A stretch of 64,000 nucleotides of DNA from a virus (taxonomy: Duplodnaviria > Caudoviricetes). Below the pieces are notes generated by a model, which was not told the DNA's origin, made no database searches, and saw only the letters and a list, made by a program, of their open reading frames with translations. The stretch covers positions 63,790-127,789 of the IMG/VR virus record IMGVR_UViG_3300036784_000120. One strand, given 5' to 3'. Both the position numbers and the translations under genes were made by a program. Shown piece by piece: positions 1 to 64,000 of the stretch (positions are counted from its first letter, which is position 1; each line of letters opens with the position of its first letter).

Positions 1-2300
1 CCCTTGGCGAGCTGCTTGCCGTACTTGGACAGCGCGATGTTCATCGCCTCGTCGAACTGCTCGCGGCTGGCATGCTCGTCGATCGAGGTGGTGTCCAGGC
101 CGGTCGGCTTGATGCTCATCGCGTACTTGTCGGCGCCCTGCGGCAGGTCCTGCCCGGACCGCGGGTCGATGGTCGCGCCGCCCCACGACTTCTGCACCTC
201 AGCGTAGGTGCGTGCCTTGATAGCCTCCCAGTTTTTGCGCATCCCCTCGGTGGTCCACGGCTGATGCTGAATGTCGTGGAGCCGGTCGCGGCCTTCCGCC
301 GCCATCTGATGGAACTCGTCTTCGCTGACCGGCCTCGAGTTACCCCGCGCGCCTTCACCGCGGATCGGCTCAGTGACCTTCTCGAGCAGGCCCGCGCCGC
401 CGCGGGTCCACCGGCCGTCACGGTCGCGGGGCTCATCCCGCCACCCTTCCCAGCCGCGCAAGTCGATCAGGCGGGCCTGCCCGCTGACTGTCATGTCCTG
501 CTCAGGTGCCACCTCACGGACAACGCGCACCGGATGCGTGGTGCGGAAATCCTCCCCAGGCCGCCCGTCTGGATCCGCTTCCACTGGCCCGGTGGGTTCT
601 ACCTCATAGACATGCGCAGCCGCGTTCTCGTCCCGGGCCGCGCGCAGCCGGCCGATGCGATTGTGGGCGACGGTCGCGGCACGGTCGGCGTAGCGGGTAG
701 CTACCTTGACGCTACGAGACACATGGTTGTACTGCCCCTGCAGACCGTTCACGTTCTCAAGACGGGGATCACGGGATGTGGCTGGGTGCCCTGTCTCAAC
801 TAGATCCCCGGGCTTCAGTACCGCGCTGGTGCCGTGGAAAAACTGGCCGTGCTCGTCCCGCGGTTCTGTCCGCCAGCCTTCCCAGTCGGATGCCGCCAGC
901 TGCGCGGTCCCGCCGTACCGGGCATGCTGCTTCCCGCCGCCTTCCTCAGCGTCGGCCGTGACCTTATCCAGCCCGGCCAGCCATTTCGCCTCGGCCGGGT
1001 AGTTGTCGGTGAAGTGGACGGCGAGTTTCCCCGCATGCTCCACCGCGCCGGCGAGGTGCTTCTCGCAGTGGTCGGCGTTGAACTCCCATTCGGCGCCGTC
1101 CGGATCGGTGTCGGCTGTCATCGCTTCGGCGTGCCGGGATCCGTGGGTGAGCTCGTGGAGCGTTGTCTCGAGGAGATGCGCGGTGGTGGCGCTCTTGGCG
1201 GCGCTGCTGACTGCCTTCGCCAGCCCGATCACGTTCCAGTCGTCAGCTACTGCCATGTCGGCTGGATAGTCAACGAAACCGGTCACGGGGCGGACACCTG
1301 CCACCATCTTCGCGGGGATGTCCTTCTTCAGCGCATAGGCAGCCCCGCCCATATGATCTTGCGCGGGCCACAGGAACTCGCTGGCCCTCGACTTCGGGAT
1401 GCGGATCTTTACGGTGGCGCGGTCACCTGCGCCGCGGCTGGCGTACGCATCGGCTGTCTGCCGGTTTACGGTAGTGACGGGCCATTTCGCGGGATAGATG
1501 TGCCCTTCTGAGACATGCAGGCCGGTTTTGGCGATGGAGTCGGCATTCTCCCGGCTCGTACCGTGGTAGAGCGTGATCCACTCGCCGTGCCCCCCCCGCG
1601 CCTCGTGTTCCCATGCGGCCAGGTCCAGTGCCGCGGCCTGCTGCCCGGTCAGCCCGACCGCCTGGCGGACCTGCTCGAGTTCCGCCGCCTCAGCGGGGTA
1701 ATGCTCGCGGAGGTTCGCGGTGAGCCAGTGCGCGTCGTCGAGGGCGGAGGCCAGGTGCCGGGCGACATGCGTGCAGTGATACGCGCGCAACGCCCCGGCC
1801 GCGGCCCGGGCGGCGGTCATCCGGCCGGCGGCGTGCGCGAGGTTATGCAGGATCCCGTCGACACGGTGGGCGGTGAACATGGCGATCGCCGCACGATCGC
1901 CGGGGACGGGCAGGCCGGGTGCTGTCATCGCCGCCGGGGCAACCGTCACCGCGGCGGCCAGGTCCAGCGCCTGGGCGGTGATACTGGCGTGCTCCTGGCC
2001 GGGCTGCGGGTCGTTGCGGCGTTCGATCAGCTCGTGGGCGATCTCAAGCCAGTCAACTGCGGCCGGGTCACCGCCGGACGCTGCGAGGTCCTCGAGCACG
2101 GCACGGGGCACCAGGTGCTCGTGCAGCGTGTCCGCGACAGTGTGCGGGTTACCCGGGTATTCGCGGGCCACGTCGAGGGCCTGCCGCAGCACATCCTCGT
2201 TGGTGAAGATCCACTTCACCAGGTGCATGGTTTCCTGGGTGTGCCAGCCTTGCCCGGTGAAACCGGGGACATGGCCGTCAATCTGAGCGGTGATCGTCAT
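1..2300 (-). CDS. Large multidomain head-region protein with two H-type ADP-ribosyltransferase domains; 3' end runs off the window (>766 aa)
   Basis: Absent from the ORF track because there is no stop in the window. Translated by hand from ATG 2300 (ATGA overlap with 2297..2548): MTITAQIDGHVPGF... It contains TLYHGTSRENADSIAKTGL...ADAYA (~1300-1580) and Arr-like FFHGTSAVLKPGDLVETGH...VYEVEPTGPVEADPD...FRTTHPVRVVREV (~505-850). Track ORFs 72..803, 834..1511 and 1515..2615 are its antisense shadows. Confidence 0.85.
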   Translation of the reverse strand, partial: MTITAQIDGHVPGFTGQGWHTQETMHLVKWIFTNEDVLRQALDVAREYPGNPHTVADTLHEHLVPRAVLEDLAASGGDPAAVDWLEIAHELIERRNDPQPGQEHASITAQALDLAAAVTVAPAAMTAPGLPVPGDRAAIAMFTAHRVDGILHNLAHAAGRMTAARAAAGALRAYHCTHVARHLASALDDAHWLTANLREHYPAEAAELEQVRQAVGLTGQQAAALDLAAWEHEARGGHGEWITLYHGTSRENADSIAKTGLHVSEGHIYPAKWPVTTVNRQTADAYASRGAGDRATVKIRIPKSRASEFLWPAQDHMGGAAYALKKDIPAKMVAGVRPVTGFVDYPADMAVADDWNVIGLAKAVSSAAKSATTAHLLETTLHELTHGSRHAEAMTADTDPDGAEWEFNADHCEKHLAGAVEHAGKLAVHFTDNYPAEAKWLAGLDKVTADAEEGGGKQHARYGGTAQLAASDWEGWRTEPRDEHGQFFHGTSAVLKPGDLVETGHPATSRDPRLENVNGLQGQYNHVSRSVKVATRYADRAATVAHNRIGRLRAARDENAAAHVYEVEPTGPVEADPDGRPGEDFRTTHPVRVVREVAPEQDMTVSGQARLIDLRGWEGWRDEPRDRDGRWTRGGAGLLEKVTEPIRGEGARGNSRPVSEDEFHQMAAEGRDRLHDIQHQPWTTEGMRKNWEAIKARTYAEVQKSWGGATIDPRSGQDLPQGADKYAMSIKPTGLDTTSIDEHASREQFDEAMNIALSKYGKQLAK

Positions 2301-10839: not shown

Positions 10840-11162
10840 TGTGCGGCCCCCGGTGTCCCATGCACCGCTGCCGTCCACGCCGTGATCACGGCCGTCACGA
10901 ACCGGGGATCCTGGCTCATCAGCCCGTCCAGGTCGGCAGGCACCGGATGACCGTCGTCGTCCTCCACGTTCCACGACTCCAGGGCGTAGCCGAGCGTCGC
11001 GGTCATATGGCGGAACGCCGCCAGGTCACCGGAGGCGACCGCAGCAGCAGTGTCGAGCATCACCGACATGGGCACCGGCCGGACCGTGATCTCCAGCCCT
11101 TCATACTCGGTGCCGGTGAAGTCCAGCTTGAACGGGGCGCGTTTCGGCCGGAAACCTGTCAC
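10836..11162 (-). CDS. Tail assembly chaperone-like protein
   Basis: FKLDFTGTEYEGLEITVR...ALESWNVEDDDGHPVPADLDGLMSQD resembles actinophage chaperones. Confidence 0.6.
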   Translation of the reverse strand: MTGFRPKRAPFKLDFTGTEYEGLEITVRPVPMSVMLDTAAAVASGDLAAFRHMTATLGYALESWNVEDDDGHPVPADLDGLMSQDPRFVTAVITAWTAAVHGTPGAAQ

Positions 11163-12768
11163 TGTGCCGCTCCCGGTAGTCCGCCTGCTGCGGGCGGGTT
11201 CTGCGGTGGCCGCGGCGGGCCCGCGGCGGCGGGACGCATCTGCGGTGCCGACGGCGGCCGTGGCCCCTGCTGCCCGCCGCCGGCCCTGGCGGCGGCCTGC
11301 TGCGTGATCGCCGTGCCCGCCTGCGCGAGTCCCTGCAGCTGGCCGAGCCCCGCCGCGGCCTCCGGCGGCATGCCAGGCGGCGGATTGCCAGCTAGCTGTT
11401 CGGCACGTTGCGAAGCGGTAGACACCAGCGCGTCATGCACCTGGTCCACGTCCAGCTGCAGAATCGACGCCATCCGTTCGGTGATCAGGTCAAACACCTG
11501 CAGCGGCACGTGCAGCACCGGCGCCGCCGACATCTGCCCGAACATCGTCAGCAACTGCTGCGCCTGCTCATCCTGAAGCGGACCGAACTTCGCCTGCGGA
11601 TACGATGCGCCGGTACCGAAGTTGAGCATCACCAGCGGCCGGATCACGTCGTAGGAGATGGATTCGGCGATTTCCTTCGCCACACCCTGACGCGACTTCA
11701 GGTAGAAGTCGGACTGGTCCTGCGACAGGCTGTAGGCGCCCTTCCCGCCGGTTGACGCGGACGCGAGGCCGAGGAACCCGGCCAGCACACTGCTGATCGC
11801 CCACGACGACAGGAACGACAGCGCCTGGGAGAAGAACAGGCCCGCATCCGCGGACGACGGGATCGCCTCGAACGCCTTCTGCCCGTCGATCGGGTGCACC
11901 AGCCCGACGACACCGGAGCCGCGGAGCTGGGAAATGTCGTCGGCGCGGGCGGTGGCTTCCGGCTGGTCGTTGCCGTAGACGACAAGCCGCTGCAACGCCA
12001 TGTTCTCCAGGTAGTAGTACCAGAGATACAGCAGCTTCATCTGGGTCGAATGGCACCAGTACGCCACCTCAACCTCGGACACGCCCGTCAGCGGCTCCCG
12101 GTGCTTCCCGTGGGTGTAAATGTAGGAGCGGATCTTCGGGATATCCACATACCCCGGCACCTTCTGCCGCCTGGACAGCATCAGGTTCCCGCCGAACAGC
12201 CACACCTGCTGCCGGAACCCGTTCGCCTCCCCCGACCTGTCGTTATACCGGGCCTGGCACGTGGCAGGCGGGCGGAACGCGATCTTGTCGTAAACGATCT
12301 TCCCGTCCGACTCGCGGACCTTGAACGTCTTCTCGAAAAACGCCCGCCGGTACAGCTGACCCGACGTGATCTGGCCGAGCAGCTCCGTCATCGGCGTCCG
12401 CATGCCGCCCTCAGTGTCCGGCGTCATCAGCACGCTGCGGATGAAGTCGCATTCGCCTTTGTCGCCCTTGCCGGGCTCAATCGAGAAGTCGGCTTCGCGG
12501 ATCGGGAGGGTCAGCACCAGCTCGAGGGCCTGCGCGGTGCCGTTGCGGGAGAACATGGTCTTCAGGTCACGAGACGACCATTCGCCATATTCTTAAATCG
12601 AAGACATCACCCTCGCCGTAGTAGGCGAACAGCCGCTGACCGTAGTCAAACGAGGTCTAAAGTCCCGATCTCAGGACCCATCAGGGTCCGCTTGCCGCCC
12701 GGGCCGCGGGAGCCCTTGGGGGGGAGATCGGGGAAGGCGATCACGTTAGCGTCTTTACCGGATGCCAT
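11159..12768 (-). CDS. Portal protein (DUF935/Mu gp29-like), ~531 aa, with two 7-nt coding gaps near the N-terminus
   Basis: Body ORF 11159..12556 (SVLAGFLGL...GAYSLSQDQSDFY...IRPLVMLNFG). The N-terminus from ATG 12768 joins in frame when 12654-12660 and 12590-12596 are skipped: ...PEIGT/SFDYGQRLFAYYGEGDVFD/YGEWSSRDLKTMFSRNG. Confidence 0.82.
12590..12599 (-). other. Candidate UUA bypass site, portal #2: GAT TTA A GAA
   Basis: In-frame TTA; skipping 7 nt restores the frame; reading through reaches TGA after 9 codons counting the TTA. Confidence 0.7.
12654..12663 (-). other. Candidate UUA bypass site, portal #1: ACT TTA G ACC
   Basis: Synonymous Thr take-off and landing codons; reading through gives TTA GAC CTC GTT TGA. 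Confidence 0.75.
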
Positions 12769-12819
12769 CTTCTTGCATCACCCCCTCTCCGCTGCCAGGG
12801 GCGCACAAGGGCGCCGGTG

Positions 12820-12843
12820 ATGCACGTGCATATGCACGTGCAT
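12820..12843. promoter_or_regulatory. 24-bp perfect palindrome ATGCACGTGCATATGCACGTGCAT (copy 1)
   Basis: Intergenic, upstream of portal; recurs at 25073, 33569 and (degenerate) 30748. Confidence 0.75.
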
Positions 12844-12927
12844 GGGGCCACGATACCGCCTGCCCGCATGCCGGGCATAGCCACGTACCGCTGTACGCCA
12901 TGCCGACATGTGTGGTATGATGTACTT

Positions 12928-13302
12928 GTGGATGAGAAGACGAACGACGGCACGATCACCATGAGGCTGACGCCGTTCCAGGCCACCGAGATCGAGCACG
13001 GCCTGGACATCGACGCCAGCGACGGCAACCCCGACTGGGGTGAGCTGAAGTACGCCGGGCGCCGCACCGGCCCGGCCGTGCTCACCATCCGGGCCGGGCA
13101 GCAGAACCTGGACGCTGCCCTGTACCGGGTCACGTCCAGCCGGGACATCCCCGCCGACAACGCCAGCGACCCGATGGCCAGCCCCGGCGAGCGGATGGGC
13201 TACCTGTCCGCCGCCCGCTCCCTGGACTCGCTGGTGCAGCGGCTCATCGCCGTTGCCGGCGGCCCGGAAGCATTCAGCAAGAACGTCAGGCGATGGATAT
13301 GA
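12928..13302 (+). CDS. Hypothetical protein (probably leaderless)
   Basis: TATGAT 6 nt before the GTG start. Confidence 0.7.
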   Translation: MDEKTNDGTITMRLTPFQATEIEHGLDIDASDGNPDWGELKYAGRRTGPAVLTIRAGQQNLDAALYRVTSSRDIPADNASDPMASPGERMGYLSAARSLDSLVQRLIAVAGGPEAFSKNVRRWI

Positions 13303-13553
13303 CCGCCTCCCCGATCTCGCCGGAGACGATGCGCGAGCACCGTGCCCGCTGGTTCGTCTACGCCGGCAGGGAGAAGATCCGGCACACCGCCACCATGCGC
13401 GGCCAGTGGGGCTACGACGTTGAATGCTCATGCGGGTGGAAGACCCGGACCGGCGGCGGCGTCCGCAGCTACGTAGAGGACGAACTGTTCGCGCACCGTT
13501 TCAGCGCCCAGTGCGACGCTGAGCGGGCCGCGACCGCAGGGGAGACCCGATGA
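13299..13553 (+). CDS. Hypothetical protein
   Basis: GYDVECSCGWKT; ATGA coupling. Confidence 0.75.
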   Translation: MTASPISPETMREHRARWFVYAGREKIRHTATMRGQWGYDVECSCGWKTRTGGGVRSYVEDELFAHRFSAQCDAERAATAGETR

Positions 13554-13843
13554 GCGCCGAGCGAATGCAGGCACCATACCTTCCGTCCGGCGGCACCCGC
13601 GTGCCGCTGCCATGCGGCCACCACAATGCGCGGCTCCGCCCCGGCGAGCGCACAGCGGAGCGGCGCTGCCGGACCTGCCGCAACTACTACCTCATCGAGT
13701 GCTCGGATACTGAGACCGCGCTGGTCTCGGACATCACGTGCCCGGCATGCGGAGCGAGCATGAACAGCGAGGGTGACATGTGGTGGTGCCCGGGTTGCGG
13801 CGACGAATGGGACGACGAGACGGTACGGGGAGTGGTGCGCTGA
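13550..13843 (+). CDS. Zinc-ribbon protein
   Basis: Three CxxC pairs plus a CGH. Confidence 0.7.
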   Translation: MSAERMQAPYLPSGGTRVPLPCGHHNARLRPGERTAERRCRTCRNYYLIECSDTETALVSDITCPACGASMNSEGDMWWCPGCGDEWDDETVRGVVR

Positions 13844-14178
13844 TGGCGACACACGAGTCCGTGGAGATGATCTGCGGGCACAGTGCCCAGCTCACACCTG
13901 ACAATGCTAGGCAGGCGCGCAGGAACGGCTCGCTGTTCTGCCCCACATGCGGGCACAAGCAGCCCCTAACGCCTGACTGGCCGGACCGTTCCTGGGTCAC
14001 GGCCGCCGAGCTCGCCGCGATCGCGCGGCGCAACGAACGCACCATCCACCGCGAAATCGAACGCAGGAACCTGCACGCCGAACGCGCCGGCGGCGCCCCC
14101 TCCCCGTGGATCATCGAACGCGCCGAGGCAGAACGGTGGCTGCGCGAGTACAAACCGGAAAGGACGGCAGAACGATGA
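13843..14178 (+). CDS. Zinc ribbon + excisionase-like HTH DNA-binding protein
   Basis: WVTAAELAAIARRNERTIHREIERRNLHAER...WIIERAEAERWL. Confidence 0.75.
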   Translation: MATHESVEMICGHSAQLTPDNARQARRNGSLFCPTCGHKQPLTPDWPDRSWVTAAELAAIARRNERTIHREIERRNLHAERAGGAPSPWIIERAEAERWLREYKPERTAER

Positions 14179-14399
14179 CGCGACTGCAGCAGGAGATAGC
14201 CGACTACCTGCATAGCCCGGTAACCGCCGCCGAAGTCCAGACCGCCGCATACGTGAGGTTCGCGGCATGGATGGCCGCGCACGATACCGGGCCGCGCAGC
14301 GTCACGGTCGGGCAGATCGGCCGGGAATTCCAGAACCTCAGCTACGAGACTATCTGCCGGTGGATCAGGCACTACCGGGGAGGGGAGCAAGAGCAGTGA
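14175..14399 (+). CDS. Small HTH-like protein
   Basis: TVGQIGREFQNLSYETICRWI. Confidence 0.6.
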   Translation: MTRLQQEIADYLHSPVTAAEVQTAAYVRFAAWMAAHDTGPRSVTVGQIGREFQNLSYETICRWIRHYRGGEQEQ

Positions 14400-14662
14400 G
14401 TGACTACATTCCGCCTGAGCCGTCGTCTCGCGACAAGGTGCTCCACCGGGTGCAAGGCGGCCGGTGGGTGGCCAGCGGGTACGACATGGGACTGGTGCTC
14501 AACGACCAGCCCGAGCACGAAGACGGGGTTCTCGGCGTGGCGGAGTACGAAGGCGGCCCGGTCCTTGAGTTCATCAACGGGCACGCCTACGACACCGGCG
14601 TGACCGTGACGATCATGATCATCACCACCGAGGCATCCATCCGGACGGAGGACAAGCGATGA
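14396..14662 (+). CDS. Hypothetical protein
   Basis: GTGA/ATGA coupling. Confidence 0.65.
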   Translation: MSDYIPPEPSSRDKVLHRVQGGRWVASGYDMGLVLNDQPEHEDGVLGVAEYEGGPVLEFINGHAYDTGVTVTIMIITTEASIRTEDKR

Positions 14663-14955
14663 GGTTCCGTGACACGTACGGCGGGTCATGGCCGGGCCCG
14701 TACCCCGGCACCCGCCGGTGGGCGAGTAGGTCCGTCTCCTACGGGCCGGGCACCGCACTCGCCTACCTGACCGTCAAGACCCTGCTGTGGGTGTTCCTGC
14801 TCGGCCCGCTGTGGATCGTCGCTGAATGCTGGACGGTCCTCATCTCCGCGGCCGCGGTCATGGCCGGCTGGTGGATCACCAAGACGATCCCGCAGTACGA
14901 CGTGCGGTTCATCCCCGGCCGGTTCCGCCTGTGGTACTTCACCGGGAGGCCATGA
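14659..14955 (+). CDS. Membrane protein
   Basis: Hydrophobic segments. Confidence 0.65.
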   Translation: MRFRDTYGGSWPGPYPGTRRWASRSVSYGPGTALAYLTVKTLLWVFLLGPLWIVAECWTVLISAAAVMAGWWITKTIPQYDVRFIPGRFRLWYFTGRP

Positions 14956-15245
14956 TGAGCAAACGGCAGGTATTCCGGTACACCGTCCCCATCGACGAAC
15001 AGCCCCACGTCATCCAACTCACCGGTGACCCGCTGCACGTCGCGAACGGCACCCTGATTGATGAGGTTGAGTTCTGGGCTGAGCACGACATGGACGCGCC
15101 TGAGTACCCGGCGGTGTTCCAGGTAGTCGGCACCGGGGATCCGGTGCCCGACGGCGCGGTGCACGCGGGGACGACACCGAGGGATGCAGTCGGCGGCGTG
15201 TGGCACCTTTACCGGCTTCCGCTAGACGCCGGGAGGCAGTCATGA
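14952..15245 (+). CDS. Phage hypothetical protein
   Basis: VFRYTVPID...FWAE...FQVVGTGDPVP...VWHLY. Confidence 0.75.
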   Translation: MMSKRQVFRYTVPIDEQPHVIQLTGDPLHVANGTLIDEVEFWAEHDMDAPEYPAVFQVVGTGDPVPDGAVHAGTTPRDAVGGVWHLYRLPLDAGRQS

Positions 15246-15475
15246 CGGCCACCCGGTGCCGTGGCCGCGCCCGGCACTGGCGGATCGCGTTCGGCACCGT
15301 CGGGCTCCGCACCCCCGTGTGCGTGTACTGCGGCGACCCGAACCCGAAACCGCTCACCGACCAGGAGTGGGCCGAGCTGATCTACTACAGCACGACCGTC
15401 CGCAACGCCGGCGGCCAGTACGTACGGGCGGCGATTGAGGCGCGCGAGGCGGAGAAAGCCGGGAGGCCGCAGTGA
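15242..15475 (+). CDS. Hypothetical zinc-binding protein
   Basis: CVYCGDPNP; coupling. Confidence 0.65.
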   Translation: MTATRCRGRARHWRIAFGTVGLRTPVCVYCGDPNPKPLTDQEWAELIYYSTTVRNAGGQYVRAAIEAREAEKAGRPQ

Positions 15476-15777
15476 ACGGCCCCGCTAGGGACGGAGAAAC
15501 CGTGATGCAGGACGACGACCCGAGGAAGATTGAGATCAAGCCCGGTGACCGGGTGGCGATCCACTACCCGTCCAGCGGTCCGGGCAGGGCCGCGTCGGAG
15601 TCGGCTGAGACGATCGCGGCCGCCATGGACGTGGTGGAGAAACTGGTGCCCGGCTGCACCTGGCGGCGGTACCCGGCGGAGTTGGCCGAGCCGACCCGCG
15701 CCCAGGCGGTCGTGCTGAACTGCCACAAGCCTGACGGCAGTTACACCGGCTACCAGGTCCACTGGATTCGGCGGTGA
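15472..15777 (+). CDS. Hypothetical protein
   Basis: Operon coupling. Confidence 0.65.
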   Translation: MNGPARDGETVMQDDDPRKIEIKPGDRVAIHYPSSGPGRAASESAETIAAAMDVVEKLVPGCTWRRYPAELAEPTRAQAVVLNCHKPDGSYTGYQVHWIRR

Positions 15778-16001
15778 CCGAGCATGAGGGGCCGGGTCAC
15801 GGGGACGTGACGCTGAGCCTCACCGAGGAAACCAAGGACGGCGGGCGGCTGTTCCAGTCGTGGAAGGTCTGTGAATGCACCGCCGTCGCGCTGCGAGCCC
15901 GGCTAGGGCCCGCGCAGCATGAGAGCATCGCCACCGCTGAGGCTGTCCGCGCGACCGCGGAAGCGGTCCTGAACCAGCCGGGTGCCGTACACCGCCTGTG
16001 A
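15774..16001 (+). CDS. Hypothetical protein
   Basis: Operon coupling. Confidence 0.6.
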   Translation: MTEHEGPGHGDVTLSLTEETKDGGRLFQSWKVCECTAVALRARLGPAQHESIATAEAVRATAEAVLNQPGAVHRL

Positions 16002-16081
16002 TGATGGGGGCCGGGGGCGGGGCGGGAGCCGGCCCCTGTACCGTTCAATTGGGGACTCAAGCGGTACAAGGTTAGACGGGG

Positions 16082-16103
16082 TTAGCCGGCTCCCGCCGGC
16101 TAA
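16082..16103. terminator. Hairpin, possible terminator
   Basis: TTAGCCGGC-TCCC-GCCGGCTAA inverted repeat after the operon end. Confidence 0.5.
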
Positions 16104-16188
16104 AGGCAACCACCCAGCAGCATCACCGCCCTAAGTTACGAGGCGTGTCCGCTTCCAGCATGACACACGCATGGCATACTGCAAGCCC

Positions 16189-16440
16189 ATGAATGAGGAG
16201 AGCGAGGCGCTGGCCCTCGCCCGGGTCCGCGCCCAACTCCGTACCGGGGAAGCACGGGCGATCCGGAAACAGGCCGGCCTGTCCCAGGCAGACGTAGGCC
16301 GTGCGGTGGGCAGTGACGGGCCGCAAGTGTCCCGCTGGGAGACGCAGAAGTCGGTGCCGCGGCGGGAGTCGGCGCTGAAACTCGCCCGGCTGCTCGACGA
16401 TCTCGACGCGATGAACCGCAGCGGCGACGGTGGTGCCTAA
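16189..16440 (+). CDS. XRE-family HTH regulator
   Basis: IRKQAGLSQADVGRAVGSDGPQVSRWETQKSVPR. Confidence 0.85.
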   Translation: MNEESEALALARVRAQLRTGEARAIRKQAGLSQADVGRAVGSDGPQVSRWETQKSVPRRESALKLARLLDDLDAMNRSGDGGA

Positions 16441-16677
16441 CTCCGGCCACCGCCCGGCCTGCTTCAGCAGGTCCAGGTCGTGGGGTGACAGGAACCCGAG
16501 ATCGTTCATCAGCCGCAGCTCGTGATCGCTGAACATGGCGGTCATCGCGCCGACCCAACATGAGGTCGGCCTGCCGTCGGCACCTGTCACGCTCGCGCTC
16601 AAATCGGCCGGCCACGTCGGGGACCTGCCGGGACCTGAACGGGTCAAGGACCGGCCCTACGTTGACGGTGCCGTCGC

Positions 16678-17508
16678 TCACCGGGCACCTGCCCATGCGC
16701 GCTGGTAGGCGCTGACCAGCCACCGGTTAGCCACGTCGTAGTTCGGATGCTCAGGCAGCGGCGACGCCAGCGGCGACGCCAGCAGGTCCCTGATCCGTGC
16801 CTCGAGCTGGTCGGCGAGCATCAGCGCCCGGTCCATCGGGACCAGCCCCGTGCGGATGTCGCGGACGATCTCCCGCTGCCACTCCGGCATGGGAAGCGTG
16901 ATCTGGCCGGTTTCCAGCAGCTCCACGCCCTGGAAGCCGAGCCGGACCATGTGGCCGCCGAACTTGGTGTCCCAGCCGTAGGCCGCGATCAGTTCGGGGC
17001 GGGTGACATCGCGGCCTTTCCCGTCGTGGGACAGCATCGACCGGCGCTGCGCGTGCAGGTACCCGGCGAACCGGTGCCCCGCCTGCCTTGAGACGATCAG
17101 CGGGGTGAGGTCCCGCAGGTCCGCGCCGAGCGGCGTGATCGTGACGATCTCCGCGGGCGGGACGAACAGGGGGATCAGGATCGACGGGTTCCCGGCCAGC
17201 GCGAGACGCAGGTACTTGCGCAGCGAGTAGATCGTGATGTCCAGGTCGCCGGGGCCGGACCGGTTGGCGAGCCCGCCGGGGCGTTCCCACGCGGTGTGAT
17301 GCTCGTACTGGTCGAACTCGCGGAGCCCGATCACGTACTCGGCCGGCTCAGTGCAGATGCCCATCTCGTCGCGGTCGTCGTGGCCGGTGATCGCGGTGCC
17401 GTGGACACCGGAGCCGACCTGGCAGCGCAGGATGGTGGCCGATTCGGCGAGCTCGCGGAACTCCGCGCTGCCGTGCTTGCCGGGACTGCGGTATTCCGTG
17501 TCGCTCAT
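16678..17508 (-). CDS. Pol-beta superfamily nucleotidyltransferase (PF10127 Nuc-transf/RlaP-like)
   Basis: VGSGVHGT...DDRDEMGI...DITIYSLRKYLRLALAGNPS...YGWDTKFGGHMVRL. Confidence 0.85.
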   Translation of the reverse strand: MSDTEYRSPGKHGSAEFRELAESATILRCQVGSGVHGTAITGHDDRDEMGICTEPAEYVIGLREFDQYEHHTAWERPGGLANRSGPGDLDITIYSLRKYLRLALAGNPSILIPLFVPPAEIVTITPLGADLRDLTPLIVSRQAGHRFAGYLHAQRRSMLSHDGKGRDVTRPELIAAYGWDTKFGGHMVRLGFQGVELLETGQITLPMPEWQREIVRDIRTGLVPMDRALMLADQLEARIRDLLASPLASPLPEHPNYDVANRWLVSAYQRAWAGAR

Positions 17509-17558
17509 GCACCCCAGCATACCCGTTCGGCTACATAGGGCATAGTAGACTACTGGTC

Positions 17559-18026
17559 ATGTCGAAGACTCGCATGACGCTCCAGGCGAAGACGGTGCTC
17601 CGCATGCTCGCAGCCGACCCCGGCCGTGAGGTGTACGGCCTGGAAATCATACGCGCGACCGGGCTGATCAGCGGTTCCGTCTACCCCCTCCTGGGCCGCC
17701 TGGAATCGAGCGGCTGGCTGACATCACGGGCCGAGCAGATCACCCCGGCCACCGAGGGGCGGCCGCCGCGCCGCTACTACCGGATCACGCCGGCAGGCAT
17801 CGCGCAGGCACGCGCACTACCACCCGCGCAGGCATCCCCCGCAGAAAAAGCCCTGGCGCGCGGGATGCTCCAGATCGCTGACACTGCGGACATGCCAGAC
17901 TCGTTCTGGCAGGCCGACAGGCGCATCAGGCTAGCCCGTGAGGTCCTCGGCGTGCCCGACGACGGCCGGTACACCCACAGCGCACTATGGGAAGCGGAAA
18001 CCAGAGACGAGGCGGCCAGAGCATGA
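17559..18026 (+). CDS. PadR-family regulator with C-terminal extension
   Basis: YGLEIIRATGLISGSVYPLLGRLESSGWL...RRYYRIT. Confidence 0.9.
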   Translation: MSKTRMTLQAKTVLRMLAADPGREVYGLEIIRATGLISGSVYPLLGRLESSGWLTSRAEQITPATEGRPPRRYYRITPAGIAQARALPPAQASPAEKALARGMLQIADTADMPDSFWQADRRIRLAREVLGVPDDGRYTHSALWEAETRDEAARA

Positions 18027-18178
18027 CCGGCGAACATGAAATGGTCACGGTTCGCCGCGATGACCTGGCGGTGTTCCTGGCCGCAGTGGATACCGACTAC
18101 GTAAGCACCGATGACCTGCCGGACCTTCAGGACCGGATCGAGCGGCTCTATGCGGCCATCGGCGAGGAGACCGGATGA
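18023..18178 (+). CDS. Small hypothetical protein
   Basis: ATGA coupling. Confidence 0.6.
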   Translation: MTGEHEMVTVRRDDLAVFLAAVDTDYVSTDDLPDLQDRIERLYAAIGEETG

Positions 18179-18621
18179 CTGACGACAATGTGACGCCGTT
18201 CCGGCGGCCCGGCCAGGCTCCGCCGCCGGCCGGTGAGCTGAGCCGTGCCCGCGCGCTCGCCGCCGAGCAGAACGCCGGCCCCCGGGAACGCTACGGGGCT
18301 GCGATCAGCCGGCAGCGCGCCGAACGGCTCATCGCGACCGGGAAAGTTGTCCCGGCCCGCATCACCATGGCGCTCGACATCCGTGACCTCGAGGGCCCCG
18401 AAGTTGACATCGCATGCGGCGCCGCCGAGCCGGACGTGGACATGTGGGAGCTGGGCCTGGCCGTCCCGTCGCCGGAACAGGTGACGCTGCTCGCCGAGCT
18501 GACCGGATTCCAGCCCGCGTTCTTCTACAATCCGATCGAGCCCGGTCCGCTCGCCGCGTCGGCGATATTCATGTGCAGCGGCCCGCACCTGCACGGTCAC
18601 CGCGCCGGACGTGGTGGATGA
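18175..18621 (+). CDS. XRE-like HTH protein; probable frameshift near 18590 (alternative end 18724)
   Basis: VDMWELGLAVPSPEQVTLLAELTGFQPAFFY; the +1 frame continues CTVTAPDVVDENG...QGALF*. Confidence 0.65.
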   Translation: MTDDNVTPFRRPGQAPPPAGELSRARALAAEQNAGPRERYGAAISRQRAERLIATGKVVPARITMALDIRDLEGPEVDIACGAAEPDVDMWELGLAVPSPEQVTLLAELTGFQPAFFYNPIEPGPLAASAIFMCSGPHLHGHRAGRGG

Positions 18622-18887
18622 GAACGGGGTGCTGCTGTACGAAGGGAAGCCCCGCAATCTGCCCGCCGCCGTGCTCCGCAAGATGCGCAAACAGCCGCCC
18701 GCCGGGCAGGGAGCACTGTTCTGATGACGAGACCCGTCCCGGAAGAGACACCGGAGGACTGGCTGCTTTCCGCTCGGCAGCATTCCCTACCTGGATAGCA
18801 GCGGCGAGATCCTGATCAGGACGCCGTACGGTGACACGATCGGCAAGAACGGACTAGCGACAGCAGGGGGACGGCCCTGGGGGGTTC

Positions 18888-19007
18888 ATCCGGCTAGGGG
18901 AAGAGTCGAACTTCTCCCCCCGAAGGGGGCCTGGCATCCCGTATCCACCGGGCCACTCCTGTCCTGGTGGTTAGCCAAGTCACAAGTCCCGGACACCGCA
19001 GCCGAAT
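18888..19007 (-). ncRNA. Candidate 120-nt structured RNA with a T-loop
   Basis: TATGCT 7 nt upstream; terminal stem ATTCGGCTG/TAGCCGGAT; GAAG-TTCGACT-CTTC arm; C(UUCG)G hairpin. Confidence 0.45.
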
Positions 19008-19027
19008 GCTCGCCAGCATAACCCGGG

Positions 19028-19237
19028 TCATGCCCGCCGGGCCACCGCGTGCAGCGCATACACGAACGCGAGGTGATACCCGTCTTCGGCGAGCAGCTTG
19101 TCCAGCCGGTCGGTGTAGCCGTCGTCGCGGCCGACGGCGAGGCGGAACATTGCGGTCTGGGCCAGCACCCGCGCCGCGCGCTGCGGCGTCATGATCTGCT
19201 CCATCCGCGCCACCGTCATGTACTCCTCGGGTTTCAC
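19028..19237 (-). CDS. Hypothetical protein
   Basis: AAAGGTGG RBS before the GTG start. Confidence 0.65.
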   Translation of the reverse strand: MKPEEYMTVARMEQIMTPQRAARVLAQTAMFRLAVGRDDGYTDRLDKLLAEDGYHLAFVYALHAVARRA

Positions 19238-19257
19238 CCGGCCACCTTTCAGTTCAC

Positions 19258-19284
19258 CGCCATGATTTGACGTTGCCCCGGCCG
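19258..19284. repeat. Duplicate of the terminase 3' end (25/27 identical to 19810-19836)
   Basis: Both copies encode GRGNVKSWR followed by a stop; they flank the HNH gene. Confidence 0.8.
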
Positions 19285-19376
19285 GAAGTTCACGCCCCAG
19301 GGGTGCTGACCGGGCATCCTACCGCCACGATCGGACATTCCCCCCGTATCACCGGGTACAGGTTAAACTAGATCCC

Positions 19377-19802
19377 ATGCCGTATGCCGATCCAGAGAAG
19401 CACAGAAAATGGCAGCGTGAGTGGATGGCTCGGCGGCGTGCCGAGTGGATAGCTGCGCACGGCCCTTGCGTGGACTGCCGCACTTGGGACGATCTACAGG
19501 TAGACCATGTTGACGCCTCGACAAAGGTCACTCACCGGGTCTGGTCCTGGGCCAAAGAGAGGCGCGAGGAGGAGCTGGCTAAGTGCACCGTCCGGTGTGC
19601 CCCGTGTCACGAAGCGAAGACGACAGCCAGCCGCGAGGATCCCCGCGGCGAGCAGCACTGGGCCGCGAAGCTGAAAGACGACCAGATACCGGACATCCGC
19701 GCCTCACAGCTTTCGATTTCACACCTGGCTAGGGTTTACGGCGTCAGCCGGAAGGCTATCCGCAATGTGCGCCAGGGAAAGACCTGGCTTCACGTCGCTT
19801 AG
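19377..19802 (+). CDS. HNH endonuclease with C-terminal HTH
   Basis: CVDC...LQVDHVD...CAPCH; RGEQHWAAKL...YGVSRKAIRNVRQGKTW; TAAACT 7 nt before ATG. Confidence 0.88.
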   Translation: MPYADPEKHRKWQREWMARRRAEWIAAHGPCVDCRTWDDLQVDHVDASTKVTHRVWSWAKERREEELAKCTVRCAPCHEAKTTASREDPRGEQHWAAKLKDDQIPDIRASQLSISHLARVYGVSRKAIRNVRQGKTWLHVA

Positions 19803-19805
19803 TCC

Positions 19806-21498
19806 CTATCGCCACGACTTGACGTTGCCCCGGCCGCGGTCCGGTTGCGCCTGGTCATCGTCGTCTGGCGAAAAGCCGTCCAGGTCCCACGGGGCCGCAT
19901 CCATGTTCTGCTGCGCCTTCTCCATGATTTCCCGCATCCTGCGATGCCCGCGTGCTTCCTCCCCGATGCCCATGTCCGCGAGGTTCTGCGCGCCTGCCCA
20001 CTTCCGTACGGCACCCGGCCCGTACTCGCCGAGGTGCGGCACGAACGCCTGCACCACGGCGTCGCCGTCGTCGGTGGACCGGCCGAGCCGCTCCCGGATG
20101 TCGTCTTTGCCTTCCACCTGGATCCGGCCGCTTGACGTGACATCCCACTGCGGTGTCGACAGGTCACCGAGCAGCATCTCGTCGTCCGGCAGGCAGATGT
20201 CCGGGCGGGCCGACGGGTCCAGGGCCTGCCGCAGCGTCCACCACGCTTCACTCCTGCGGTTGGCGAACCCGAACTCGCGGGTGGAGTCTTTCGCCTTCGA
20301 CCCGCGGGACGCGTTGAACGCCAGCACCCTGGCGTGCTGCTCGCGGAGCCGGTCGACGACACCCGCGCCGATACCGATCACGTCAACCACGGCGGTGCGG
20401 GAATCGTCAGCGGACAGGATCGCGTTCACCCGCCCCGTGGTTTTCATCGTGTCTTCCCGCACGAACCGGCGCAGCTCCGTGATCACGGGCCCGTTACGGA
20501 TCGCGAGGACAGTGCGGTCCTCACCGGTCCTGGCCACGTCCACCCCGACGGTGCGGGGCCTGCCCAGGTCCGGCTTGCCCGCAGCCTCCCACTCATGCCA
20601 GCGGGCCACCGCCGCCTCAGCCCACGCCAGCGGGATAACCGAATCCTCGTCGCCGGCGTGGAACTCGCCGAGCACCCGGTTCACGTAGATCGCTGACGTT
20701 TCACCCCACTGGCGGAGCCGCTGCGCCGCCCAGTCCCTGGTGACCCGCCCCGCCGTGATCGCGTCGTCGAGGGTGACATGGACCGGATACCAGTCCTCGT
20801 ACCCCTGCCGGCGTGACTGAATGTCGTAGAACCGGCCCTGCGGTGCCCCCGGCGTCGACAGTGCCAGCGCGAACGCTTCCCTCGTGCCGTCCCCGGCGCC
20901 GGAGAACGCGCCTTCGCACGCGTCGAACGTGCCCGCCGGGATCGCCTTGCTCTCGTCGTAGACGAACAGCAGCGAATCGGCGTGCGCGCCTTCGATCAGC
21001 GCCGCGTTAGCTGACGCGCCGGCGAACGCATGCCCGTAACTGAGCCGCAAGTTCAGGTTCTGCAGCTCCGCCCGGGTGAACGGGTGGCCGTCACGGACCC
21101 TCCCCCATTTGATCCGGCCGGCCCACTTGTGGATTTCCGGCCACAGGTACTGGGTCAGCTGATGCCATGACCCGGCGGTCGTCGCGACCTTCCAGTCCAC
21201 GCCGGCGGCGTCCCGGGTCAACGCAAACCACAGCACCGTCACCGCCGCGATGGTGCTTTTGCCCAGTCCTTAATCCATGGGGGCCGCGGACCGCTTCGCG
21301 TTTCCGCTGCGGCAGGCCCCCAATGATTTCCTCCTGGTATCCGGTCAGCCCCTCGCCGCGCCAGTCGATGCAGTCCGCGGCGAAGCCGAGCGGGTCATCG
21401 TAGTAGCGGGCGACGCCCTGCTTGATTTTCGCTGCGCGCCGCTGCAGTTCCAGCAGGTAGCGCAGCCGGTCAGCCGGCGCCTGTATCTGCGGGGTCAT
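19806..21498 (-). CDS. terL: Terminase large subunit (~561 aa) with a 7-nt coding gap in Walker A
   Basis: Two track ORFs join to VRGPHG/LGKSTIAA when 21267-21273 is skipped; Walker B FVYDES, LSTP, nuclease VGVDVARTGEDRTV, RSTDDGDA. Confidence 0.92.
21267..21276 (-). other. Candidate UUA bypass site, terminase: GGA TTA A GGA
   Basis: Identical take-off and landing codons around an in-frame TTA; skipping 7 nt restores GxxGxGKS. Confidence 0.82.
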
Positions 21499-22066
21499 TA
21501 TCGGCCAGCTGCGATTCCAGTTCGGTGATCCGCGACTCGATCATGTCGGCGGTGATCACCTCGACACGGGACTTGGCGGGCGCGTCGTACCCGAAGATCC
21601 TCGCCCGCCGCTCGAGCAGGCTGCGGATCGTCGCTATCGCGGCCAGCTTCGGGCCGTCGTCGAACACGTCCTCGAACACGGGGATCGTCTTGCCGGTCAG
21701 CGGGTCGAGACGCTCAATACCGTCAGCGTCGCGTTCCACGCCGACGAAACGGCGGACGACCCGGCCGTTGGCGTGCGCCAGGTGCGGTGTGAGCATCACC
21801 TGCCACGCCTGCTCGATCAGCCGGTCGAGGCGCTCAAGGTCAGCCTGCCGCGCCGCCCCGGCCTTCTCGGTCGCCATGTCGGCGTAGGCGCGCGTGACGG
21901 CATTGCATGCGGCGCCCTTCGACGCGAAGCCGAGCTCGTCAGCGATCCGCTGATAGGACCAGCCCTGCCCGTGCAGCTCGGCGGCGTGGTAGTCGCGTCT
22001 GCGGGTGCTGTCGGTGCGGGTGTAGCGGCCGCCGCCGCCGCGTCCCGGCGGGGTTTTCGCGGTCAT
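21470..22066 (-). CDS. Terminase small subunit (HTH-type)
   Basis: GWSYQRIADELGF...LERLDRL...LERRARIFGYDAPAK; directly upstream of terL. Confidence 0.8.
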   Translation of the reverse strand: MTAKTPPGRGGGGRYTRTDSTRRRDYHAAELHGQGWSYQRIADELGFASKGAACNAVTRAYADMATEKAGAARQADLERLDRLIEQAWQVMLTPHLAHANGRVVRRFVGVERDADGIERLDPLTGKTIPVFEDVFDDGPKLAAIATIRSLLERRARIFGYDAPAKSRVEVITADMIESRITELESQLADNDPADTGAG

Positions 22067-63691: not shown

Positions 63692-64000
63692 ATGTCTAAT
63701 CGAACGATCCCCTCACCGGAGGGAAACAACTGGCGCAAGTCCCGCCGCAGCATGGGGAACGGGAACTGCGTGGAGGCCGCGAGCAGCGGCGGCGTGGTCC
63801 TGGTCCGCGACACCGCTGACCGGGACGGTGCCGTGGTCGCGGTTCCGGCGGGGGCGTGGCGGGAGTTCACGGCGCGGCGGCCGCGGGGCGTTTGCGAAGG
63901 GTCGGTGAGCGGTGAGTTCGCCGCCGGGTTCGCTGCGGATCCGTGCGGTGAACCGGCGGTGTGGGCGTGGCAGCCGCAAGGAGCCAACACGCCCGTCAGG
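63692..64000 (+). CDS. DUF397 protein (runs off the window)
   Basis: WRKSRRSMGNGNCVEAA...VRDT...AWREF; GGAGG RBS. Confidence 0.8.
   Translation, partial: MSNRTIPSPEGNNWRKSRRSMGNGNCVEAASSGGVVLVRDTADRDGAVVAVPAGAWREFTARRPRGVCEGSVSGEFAAGFAADPCGEPAVWAWQPQGANTPVR

Follow-up and report, generated by a model that had tools for sequence, protein, structure and literature searches.

The stretch analyzed here, referred to in the following as the window, comprises 64,000 nt (positions 63,790 to 127,789, the second half) of the virus genome IMGVR_UViG_3300036784_000120 in IMG/VR, a ~128-kb soil actinophage (127,789 bp, 69.6% G+C). On its minus strand, the genes for the large terminase (TerL) and the portal protein are interrupted by three blocks of 7 nt, one in TerL and two in the portal gene, each of which begins with an in-frame TTA. 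Comparison with uninterrupted homologues suggests that these blocks are most likely untranslated coding gaps, which the ribosome would cross by short-range translational bypassing (hopping).

Three 7-nt interruptions in the terminase and portal genes

Two open reading frames (ORFs) on the minus strand, 21498..21091 and 21242..19806, jointly correspond to a large terminase (PHROG 2; nuclease domain of PDB 8dkr; no Pfam match). The first segment of the gene (21274..21498) runs from the ATG at 21498 to a GGA codon at 21276–21274. It encodes MTPQ...AVRGPHG, ending in the first half of the Walker A motif, and aligns with insert-free TerL homologues from their residue 1. It is followed by the 7-nt block TTAAGGA (21267..21273), made up of TTA (21273–21271), A (21270) and GGA (21269–21267), after which the second segment (19806..21266) resumes with CTG (21266–21264) and continues as LGKSTIAAV... 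through the nuclease domain to the stop codon. The window reads CAT GGA TTA A GGA CTG GGC AAA at this point, while all of the 40 insert-free homologues have VRGPH--GLGKS, the Walker A motif GPHGLGKS (GxxxxGKS), leaving an excess of exactly 7 nt in the window. With UUA in the A site, the GGA on which a hopping ribosome would land is identical to the GGA from which it would take off. Decoding of the TTA in the zero frame leads to a stop after ~60 codons (ORF 21091..21498).

The portal gene is broken twice. Its first segment (12661..12768, minus strand, as are all that follow) extends from the ATG at 12768 to the take-off codon ACT (12663–12661) and encodes MASGKDANVIAFPDLPPKGSRGPGGKRTLMGPEIGT. 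Gap 1, TTAGACC (12654..12660), consists of TTA (12660–12658), G (12657) and ACC (12656–12654), the landing codon ACC being synonymous with the take-off codon ACT. The second segment (12597..12653) has 19 codons, SFDYGQRLFAYYGEGDVFD, the last of which is the take-off codon GAT (12599–12597) of gap 2, TTAAGAA (12590..12596; TTA 12596–12594, A 12593, GAA 12592–12590). Here, the landing codon GAA equals the take-off codon at two of three positions. The third segment (11159..12589), from the resume codon TAT (12589–12587) to the stop codon, makes up the body of a Mu-type portal protein (PF06074, PHROG 113). The two sites read GGG ACT TTA G ACC TCG TTT and TTC GAT TTA A GAA TAT GGC, respectively. 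All 59 full-length portal homologues have EIG--T[QS]FDYGQRLFAYYGEGDVFD--YGEW, again leaving an excess of exactly 7 nt per site. If the TTA is decoded, the zero frame reaches a stop after four codons at gap 1 and after nine codons at gap 2.

A preliminary description of the window had reported these three sites with the TTA in the upstream frame at each, and direct reading of the minus strand bore out their coordinates and letters base for base. It had also stated that skipping 7 nt restores the frame. Any skip of 3n+1 nt would do so, and homologues were therefore needed to fix the length of the gaps. We used a frameshift-aware protein-to-DNA alignment, in which an insert-free reference protein is aligned with each locus and skips in the DNA are allowed; positions in this reference protein are given as "ref aa" and individual loci as L numbers. 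The alignment placed one 7-nt skip in TerL and two in the portal gene, and the insert-free homologues lack exactly these 7 nt, inside GPHG/LGKS, EIGT/SFDY and VFD/YGEW.

An artefact of sequencing or assembly, in which the 7-mers are not present in the phage DNA, has next to no probability. An identical TerL break, GGATTAAGGA, occurs in four independent metagenome assemblies with diverged flanks, which argues against assembly error, and the four lineages with the identical TerL gap differ at 30–45% of synonymous sites. This 7-nt gap was found in the relatives L002/L055/L079, L060/L076 and L081; L002/L055 is a 131-kb JGI contig whose TerL is 81% identical and in which GGA TTA A GGA is kept. The same or related gaps recur in dozens of assemblies made independently, from various samples and by various pipelines (JGI, ENA, Logan, IMG/VR), and their flanks have diverged.

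Alternatively, the genes might be broken, either in a defective phage or in one that uses downstream starts (portal ATG at 12556, TerL GTG at 21242), the inserts being mutational scars, such as footprints of transposons or repair, that involve no unusual decoding. What gene callers annotate are indeed just the downstream ORFs, with 478 and 465 amino acids (aa), and many relatives have products of ~465 and ~475 aa. Of the closest database clusters, roughly between one in four and one in three have truncated products, with ~475 aa for TerL or ~465 aa for the portal protein; these truncated annotations are the signature of the same breaks. However, a TerL starting at 21242 would be without its P-loop, and the coding sequence ahead of and between the gaps shows strong purifying selection: among 21 gap-bearing loci, the ratio of nonsynonymous to synonymous polymorphism (pN/pS) was 0.16, with pS 0.79, at portal ref aa 34–69. 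Such selection on short portal segments indicates that all segments are translated and joined. Downstream of the gaps, including portal segment 3, pN/pS was 0.16–0.41. The TerL genes of the relatives gave 0.21–0.35 and had no stop in 27,688 aligned codons, and in TerL and portal together only one in-frame stop was found in 61,750 aligned codons (L061, portal aa 54). The breaks are kept across complete genomes with terminal repeats, the genes have no other frame breaks or stops, and random scars would not all start with an in-frame TTA or stop codon. We consider it highly improbable that the genes are broken. The preliminary description had also raised the prospect that close relatives might reveal a decayed prophage with transposon footprints. 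What we found instead were four complete relatives (G001–G004; 125–131 kb, rated 100% complete, with direct terminal repeats in two), with both genes under purifying selection.

Gaps in related phages and the landing rule

We then cataloged gaps in related phages, starting from 64 portal and 80 TerL loci taken from IMG/VR; the alignments behind the catalog cover 65 portal and 51 TerL loci. Skips at portal aa 339–343 or at either terminus, and those in the intein region of TerL in L012/L087, were excluded as alignment noise. Gaps are written as take-off codon[gap]resume codon. In all, the catalog distinguishes 54 gap variants. They fall on 12 codon positions, of which 11 belong to the portal gene and one, in the Walker A motif, to TerL; the positions listed are portal ref aa 41, 42, 53, 59, 60, 62, 68, 145, 249 and 251, and TerL aa 75. 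At least one gap is present in 47 of the 65 portal loci, with a maximum of four per locus.

The preliminary description had called for a scan of related phages for TTA-led frame breaks, and the catalog answers it: 49 of the 54 variants are led by TTA. Four others start with TGA and one with TAG, and these stop-led gaps occupy the same site as TTA-led gaps in relatives. In the conserved stretches of the portal gene, outside variable termini and low-complexity segments, each of the 79 skips that change the frame begins with an in-frame TTA or TGA, compared to none of 73 noise skips. In TerL, this was the case for 10 of 12 frame-changing skips, the two exceptions being intein-region noise, and for 4 of 55 noise skips. 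By these counts, the breaks are far beyond chance.

The uniform 7-nt geometry, which had been noted at all three sites, is no rule and holds only in this genome. In the relatives, the gaps range from 4 to 19 nt, with lengths of 4, 5, 6, 8, 9, 10, 11, 13, 14, 15 and 19 nt at the same codon positions; of the 54 variants, 26 have a length that leaves a remainder of 1 on division by 3, 22 a remainder of 2 and 6 no remainder. Examples are CAA[TTACCCAA]TTT, GGC[TTACCCACCTCGGC]GAA, TAT[TTAC]GGC, TAT[TGAC]GGA and TTC[TTAACGGGTC]GAC. At the site of portal gap 1, relatives have TTAGACC, TTACC, TTAGGACC, TTAAGGAACC or TTATAAACC, and at that of gap 2 TTAAAGAA (L004) or TTAATTGAA (L041). The TerL site holds an 11-nt gap, TTAAAAAAGGA, in L082, TTAGCGA in L043/L086 and the in-frame TTAGGA in L001, a Logan contig. 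Stop codons lie inside the in-frame gaps TTC[TTAGAACGCTAATTC]GAT, ACC[TTATAAACC]TCA and TTC[TTAACGTAGCTATTT]GAC, so that neither a frameshift nor plain reading would cross them.

The end of the gap follows a rule as well. Averaged over the 54 variants, the last gap triplet and the take-off codon share 2.15 of 3 positions, compared to 0.39–1.06 for triplets shifted by 1–3 nt, and none of 20,000 shuffles in a permutation test reached the observed total. The match is exact in 14 variants, two-of-three in 34 and one-of-three in 6. Position 2 is best kept (48/54), and first-position mismatches are frequent (TTC to GTC, CTC or ATC). A match of this kind is what re-pairing of the P-site peptidyl-tRNA would predict.

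Two further observations were made on these sites. The gaps after TTC at portal aa 59 and aa 145 are alike (TTC[TTA-N3-4-GGTC]GA) and also resemble the phiHau3 site TCT[TTAACGGTCC] discussed below; shared constraints or the copying of a small element could account for the likeness. The single in-frame stop mentioned above, in L061 at portal ref aa 54 (TAT TAC TGA TCC GGG), replaces a conserved Gly codon and stands exactly where other phages have TGA-led gaps. It could represent a 3-nt hop, readthrough or a defect.

TTA is otherwise almost absent from these genes as a sense codon. The preliminary description had found no in-frame TTA in any other core gene, and this is roughly right: the confident long ORFs of this genome, 16,064 codons in all, contain a single TTA. 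In the aligned TerL and portal genes of the relatives, it occurs once in ~61,700 codons (TerL aa 112 of L078), compared to 130 CTA and 403 TTG codons. An apparent sense TTA in TerL of L089–L094 was rejected, being out of frame in a different zinc-ribbon C-terminus. The claim falls short for a few candidate sense TTAs in accessory ORFs without a counterpart in relatives, at window position 16440 (minus strand) in ORF 16136–16723 and at G000 33156 (plus strand); the G000 candidates lie mostly in unconserved or antisense-looking ORFs. If the accessory sense TTAs are real, some decoding by Leu-tRNA(UAA) must occur during infection.

The breaks appear to be confined to the two packaging genes. Scans of the whole 127,789-bp genome by third-position G+C (GC3) and codon score detected no TTA-N frame breaks beyond the three described. 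When the ORFs of the five complete genomes were compared all against all by tblastn, 40 candidate junctions were found, of which the only real frame breaks were those in TerL and portal. The remaining junctions were gene boundaries or antisense ORFs; a gap common to all five genomes would escape this test.

Proposed mechanism of bypassing

The preliminary description had envisaged a stalled ribosome that hops over the insert, and the comparative evidence favors such a bypass, from the take-off codon before the TTA to the cognate or near-cognate end of the gap. In the mechanism that we propose, the ribosome would hold the codon before the gap (GGA, ACU or GAU) in its P site and the very rare UUA in its A site. 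Decoding would stall, with Leu-tRNA(UAA) being scarce or slow, and the peptidyl-tRNA would unpair while the mRNA slides by 7 nt. The same tRNA would then pair anew with the last triplet of the gap (GGA, ACC or GAA), which is cognate or near-cognate to it, and translation would restart at the next codon. The products would be a TerL whose Walker A motif has the canonical form GPHGLGKST, and a portal protein reading ...EIGT-SFDYGQRLFAYYGEGDVFD-YGEW.... If the UUA were decoded instead, the ribosome would run into a stop and release a short dead-end peptide. The hop itself, its efficiency and its purpose are inferences. Bypassing is favored over general +1 or quadruplet decoding, gene decay and assembly error because the gaps are mostly not of 3n length, contain stops, begin with an in-frame trigger codon and obey the landing rule.

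The most direct competitor is that UUA is read as Leu, followed by a +1 shift, or that UUAN is read as a four-base codon, so that the proteins would carry two extra residues: GPHG-LG-LGKST, EIGT-LT-SFDY and VFD-LE-YGEW. Within the window, this reading would also work. All three gaps are 7 nt long and contain no +1-frame stop, so that UUA plus a one-base skip also yields full-length proteins; with TTAN read as Leu, both TerL and portal are open at full length, and TerL reads GPHGLGLGKS. At two of the three sites, the A-site codon after UUA would be AGG or AGA, as in Ty1-type +1 sites, and L001 and two other TerL clusters have an in-frame GGA TTA GGA, which gene callers read as GLGLGK. The relatives argue otherwise, since the same positions hold gaps of 5, 8, 11 and 14 nt, which require a +2 shift (22 of the 54 variants), and in-frame gaps that contain stops. 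Moreover, the extra residues would enter the P-loop of Walker A and a portal motif that is invariant, both of which are uninterrupted in all homologues, the P-site tRNAs cannot re-pair in the +1 frame (GGA to GAU, ACU to CUU, GAU to AUU), and genes for extended-anticodon tRNAs are absent from the phage. This explanation is therefore unlikely.

Excision of the inserts at the RNA (or DNA) level before translation, which would produce a continuous mRNA, is very unlikely. The inserts, at 4–19 nt, share no structure or sequence beyond the leading TTA or stop and have no significant fold. A lead triplet set in the upstream frame, together with a last triplet that copies the preceding codon, follows the logic of the ribosome rather than that of splicing.

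Several points weigh against bypassing. The 80-nt folds around the three sites are not significant (z −0.48, −1.37 and −0.69), and inspection by eye detected no consistent Shine–Dalgarno-like stimulator at the sites, so that the efficiency could be low. Some landings are only near-cognate, such as GAU to GAA in the window and many in the relatives (UUC to GUC, CUC or AUC). Duplication of the target codon when the inserts arose (a target-site duplication) could contribute to the landing match. As mentioned above, the three gaps of the window by themselves are also compatible with a one-base skip. Finally, no tRNA gene was found in the window or in the whole genome, including any with an extended anticodon. 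Scanning of the genome contigs for a host returned only four small phage contigs binned into metagenome-assembled genomes, none of which gave a host assignment.

As for function, the gaps may throttle the production of two low-copy proteins, sense the tRNA state of the host or represent tolerated inserts of other origin. Sensing of the bldA tRNA state is the function suggested in the literature, as well as in the preliminary description. Both genes encode virion proteins of low copy number and have the gaps near their start, and failed attempts would thus be cheap. A bldA-dependent AND gate over the three sites, as originally suggested, is speculative. The stop-led gaps imply that any slow A-site codon can probably serve, which weakens the idea of a specific Leu-tRNA(UAA) sensor or a bldA gate.

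Possible origin and comparison with known systems

Inteins and homing endonucleases are found close to the gaps in the relatives. Portal inteins of ~1.08–1.1 kb are inserted at ref aa 238 (YW/...HN/C) in L001, L060, L061, L063 and L064, and all five of these loci, but none of the 60 others, have a TTA-led gap at aa 248–251, 10–12 codons downstream. TerL inteins occur after GLGK in the P-loop (L010–L013, P0020), and the TerL gap lies three codons 5' of that point. Free-standing HNH-NUMOD3 or GIY-YIG genes, many of them truncated, were found upstream of the portal gene, at L011:8953–9906 (plus strand), L043:8956–9819 (plus) and L004:8957–9457 (minus), and remnants of homing endonucleases in L053, L056–L059, L064 and G004. 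Nine loci have such a gene or a remnant 80–350 nt ahead of the portal start; each of the nine has N-terminal gaps, and no such gene occurs in any of the 17 gap-free loci (Fisher p = 0.044, without phylogenetic correction). The link between gaps and endonucleases in the relatives is only suggestive.

One possible origin, which we put forward tentatively and consider somewhat doubtful, is that the gaps are immunity scars, by analogy with T4 gene 60, rather than primarily a sensor of the host state: small insertions that destroyed the targets of homing endonucleases or inteins in the best-conserved parts of the packaging genes, of which only those that can be hopped, with a hungry codon first and a copy of the preceding codon last, would survive. 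If so, hungry-codon hopping would be a general and widespread way for high-GC phages to tolerate otherwise lethal insertions in essential genes, and the relatives would provide 54 or more natural variants from which the rules of take-off and landing can be derived.

In the window itself, Pfam and PHROG searches of the 7-kb island (12769–19805) that separates TerL from the portal gene recognized no nuclease gene beside either. The island is absent from the four complete relatives, and across loci the TerL–portal spacer varies from 314 to 7043 nt. It encodes an RlaP-family nucleotidyltransferase (16678–17520, minus strand), a PadR-like regulator (17559–18026, plus strand) and a 217-aa ORF (12778–13431, minus strand) that has no family and no Atlas neighbor and ends 10 nt before the portal ATG; several of the further ORFs are also without a family. 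On the other side of TerL, a 198-aa ORF (21470–22066, minus strand) overlaps the TerL start from upstream, where the small terminase would be expected, and matches PHROG 645 ('Rnase E', E 1e-24). In the related phage contig L001, an IS605 OrfB/TnpB-like gene (600–1781, minus strand) lies a few kb upstream of TerL.

Few departures from standard decoding are, to our knowledge, as rare as bypassing, for which T4 gene 60 and the mitochondria of a single yeast are the established cases and three terminases of Streptomyces phages or prophages the proposed ones. In the yeast, Magnusiomyces capitatus (Lang 2014; Nosek 2015), the mitochondrial byps are reportedly 27–55 nt long, have hairpin potential and are crossed in mitochondrial translation. 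The gaps described here resemble byps in that there are many per gene or genome, with matched codons and an unassigned or slow first codon, and in being apparently mobile and polymorphic between relatives. They differ in that the sequences are unrelated and byps are longer.

The closest precedent is the terminase of Streptomyces phage phiHau3, named correctly in the preliminary description. UUA-mediated bypass of two 10-nt blocks was proposed for this gene, and of 7-nt blocks in the terminases of two prophages, of Streptomyces sp. C.1 and S. catenulae (Smith 2013; Antonov 2023, PMC10732093). In the same work, the junction peptide of the phiHau3 terminase was detected by mass spectrometry in E. 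coli, a 5' stem-loop or an internal Shine–Dalgarno sequence was proposed as stimulator, and three of 100 terminases surveyed were interrupted (PMC10732093). For phiHau3, product was reportedly still made when a +1-frame stop was introduced into the gap. Reading the phiHau3 record NC_018836 directly, we found GGC[TTACTCCGGT]AAG and TCT[TTAACGGTCC]ACG, with synonymous landing codons. Both systems have an in-frame UUA right after the last homologous codon, at the start of a short block that is absent from homologues. In phiHau3 the block ends in a codon synonymous with the take-off codon, and here in one that is cognate or near-cognate. Both also concern a packaging gene of a high-GC actinophage in which zero-frame decoding leads to premature termination. 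In contrast to phiHau3, the present phage, of ~128 kb, belongs to another lineage, with a Mu-type portal and a TerL without a Pfam match. Its TerL site is inside the Walker A motif, its portal gene is interrupted as well, and twice, and no 5' stem-loop or Shine–Dalgarno signal is evident. The present clade has 12 sites with 54 variants of 4–19 nt, including stop-led and near-cognate forms.

T4 gene 60 (Huang 1988) shares with the present genes the matched take-off and landing codons (GGA to GGA also occurs in our TerL) and the location of the insert in a highly conserved stretch of an essential gene; a link to homing endonucleases or inteins, here in relatives, may be a further parallel. Its gap is 50 nt long, follows a UAG codon, depends on a take-off stem-loop and a nascent-peptide signal and is crossed with ~50% efficiency, whereas the gaps described here are 7 nt long, are led by a rare sense codon and have no detectable structure or recognized endonuclease beside TerL or portal. 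According to the passage of bioRxiv 10.1101/2022.08.31.505936 that cites Bonocora 2011, the gene 60 gap protects the DNA from nicking by MobA. The unprogrammed hopping of E. coli ribosomes at hungry or stop codons (Weiss 1987; Gallant and Lindsley), as summarized in PMC10732093, likewise involves short hops from the P-site codon to a cognate codon nearby, at a slow A site and without an elaborate signal. In that summary, however, these are low-level laboratory events on synthetic sequences, whereas the hops proposed here would be obligatory in two essential virion genes, and selected.

The kind of gap is thus already known, and the window appears to add new members and the portal as a second gene. 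In the literature that we searched, we did not find bypassing in a portal gene, clade-wide polymorphism of the gaps, stop-led forms or a minimum of 4 nt. Which pairs of take-off and landing codons and which gap lengths are viable can be read from the natural variants, with frequent first-position mismatches and gaps down to 4 nt, and this population-level picture should be of value to the recoding field. The intein and homing-endonuclease link offers a testable origin. In practical terms, annotation pipelines miss the true proteins, since gene callers consistently cut the portal and terminase genes short, at about 465 and 475 aa, respectively. If the gaps are bypassed as proposed, the phiHau3 case would no longer be a curiosity, bypassing being common within a clade of large actinophages from soil.

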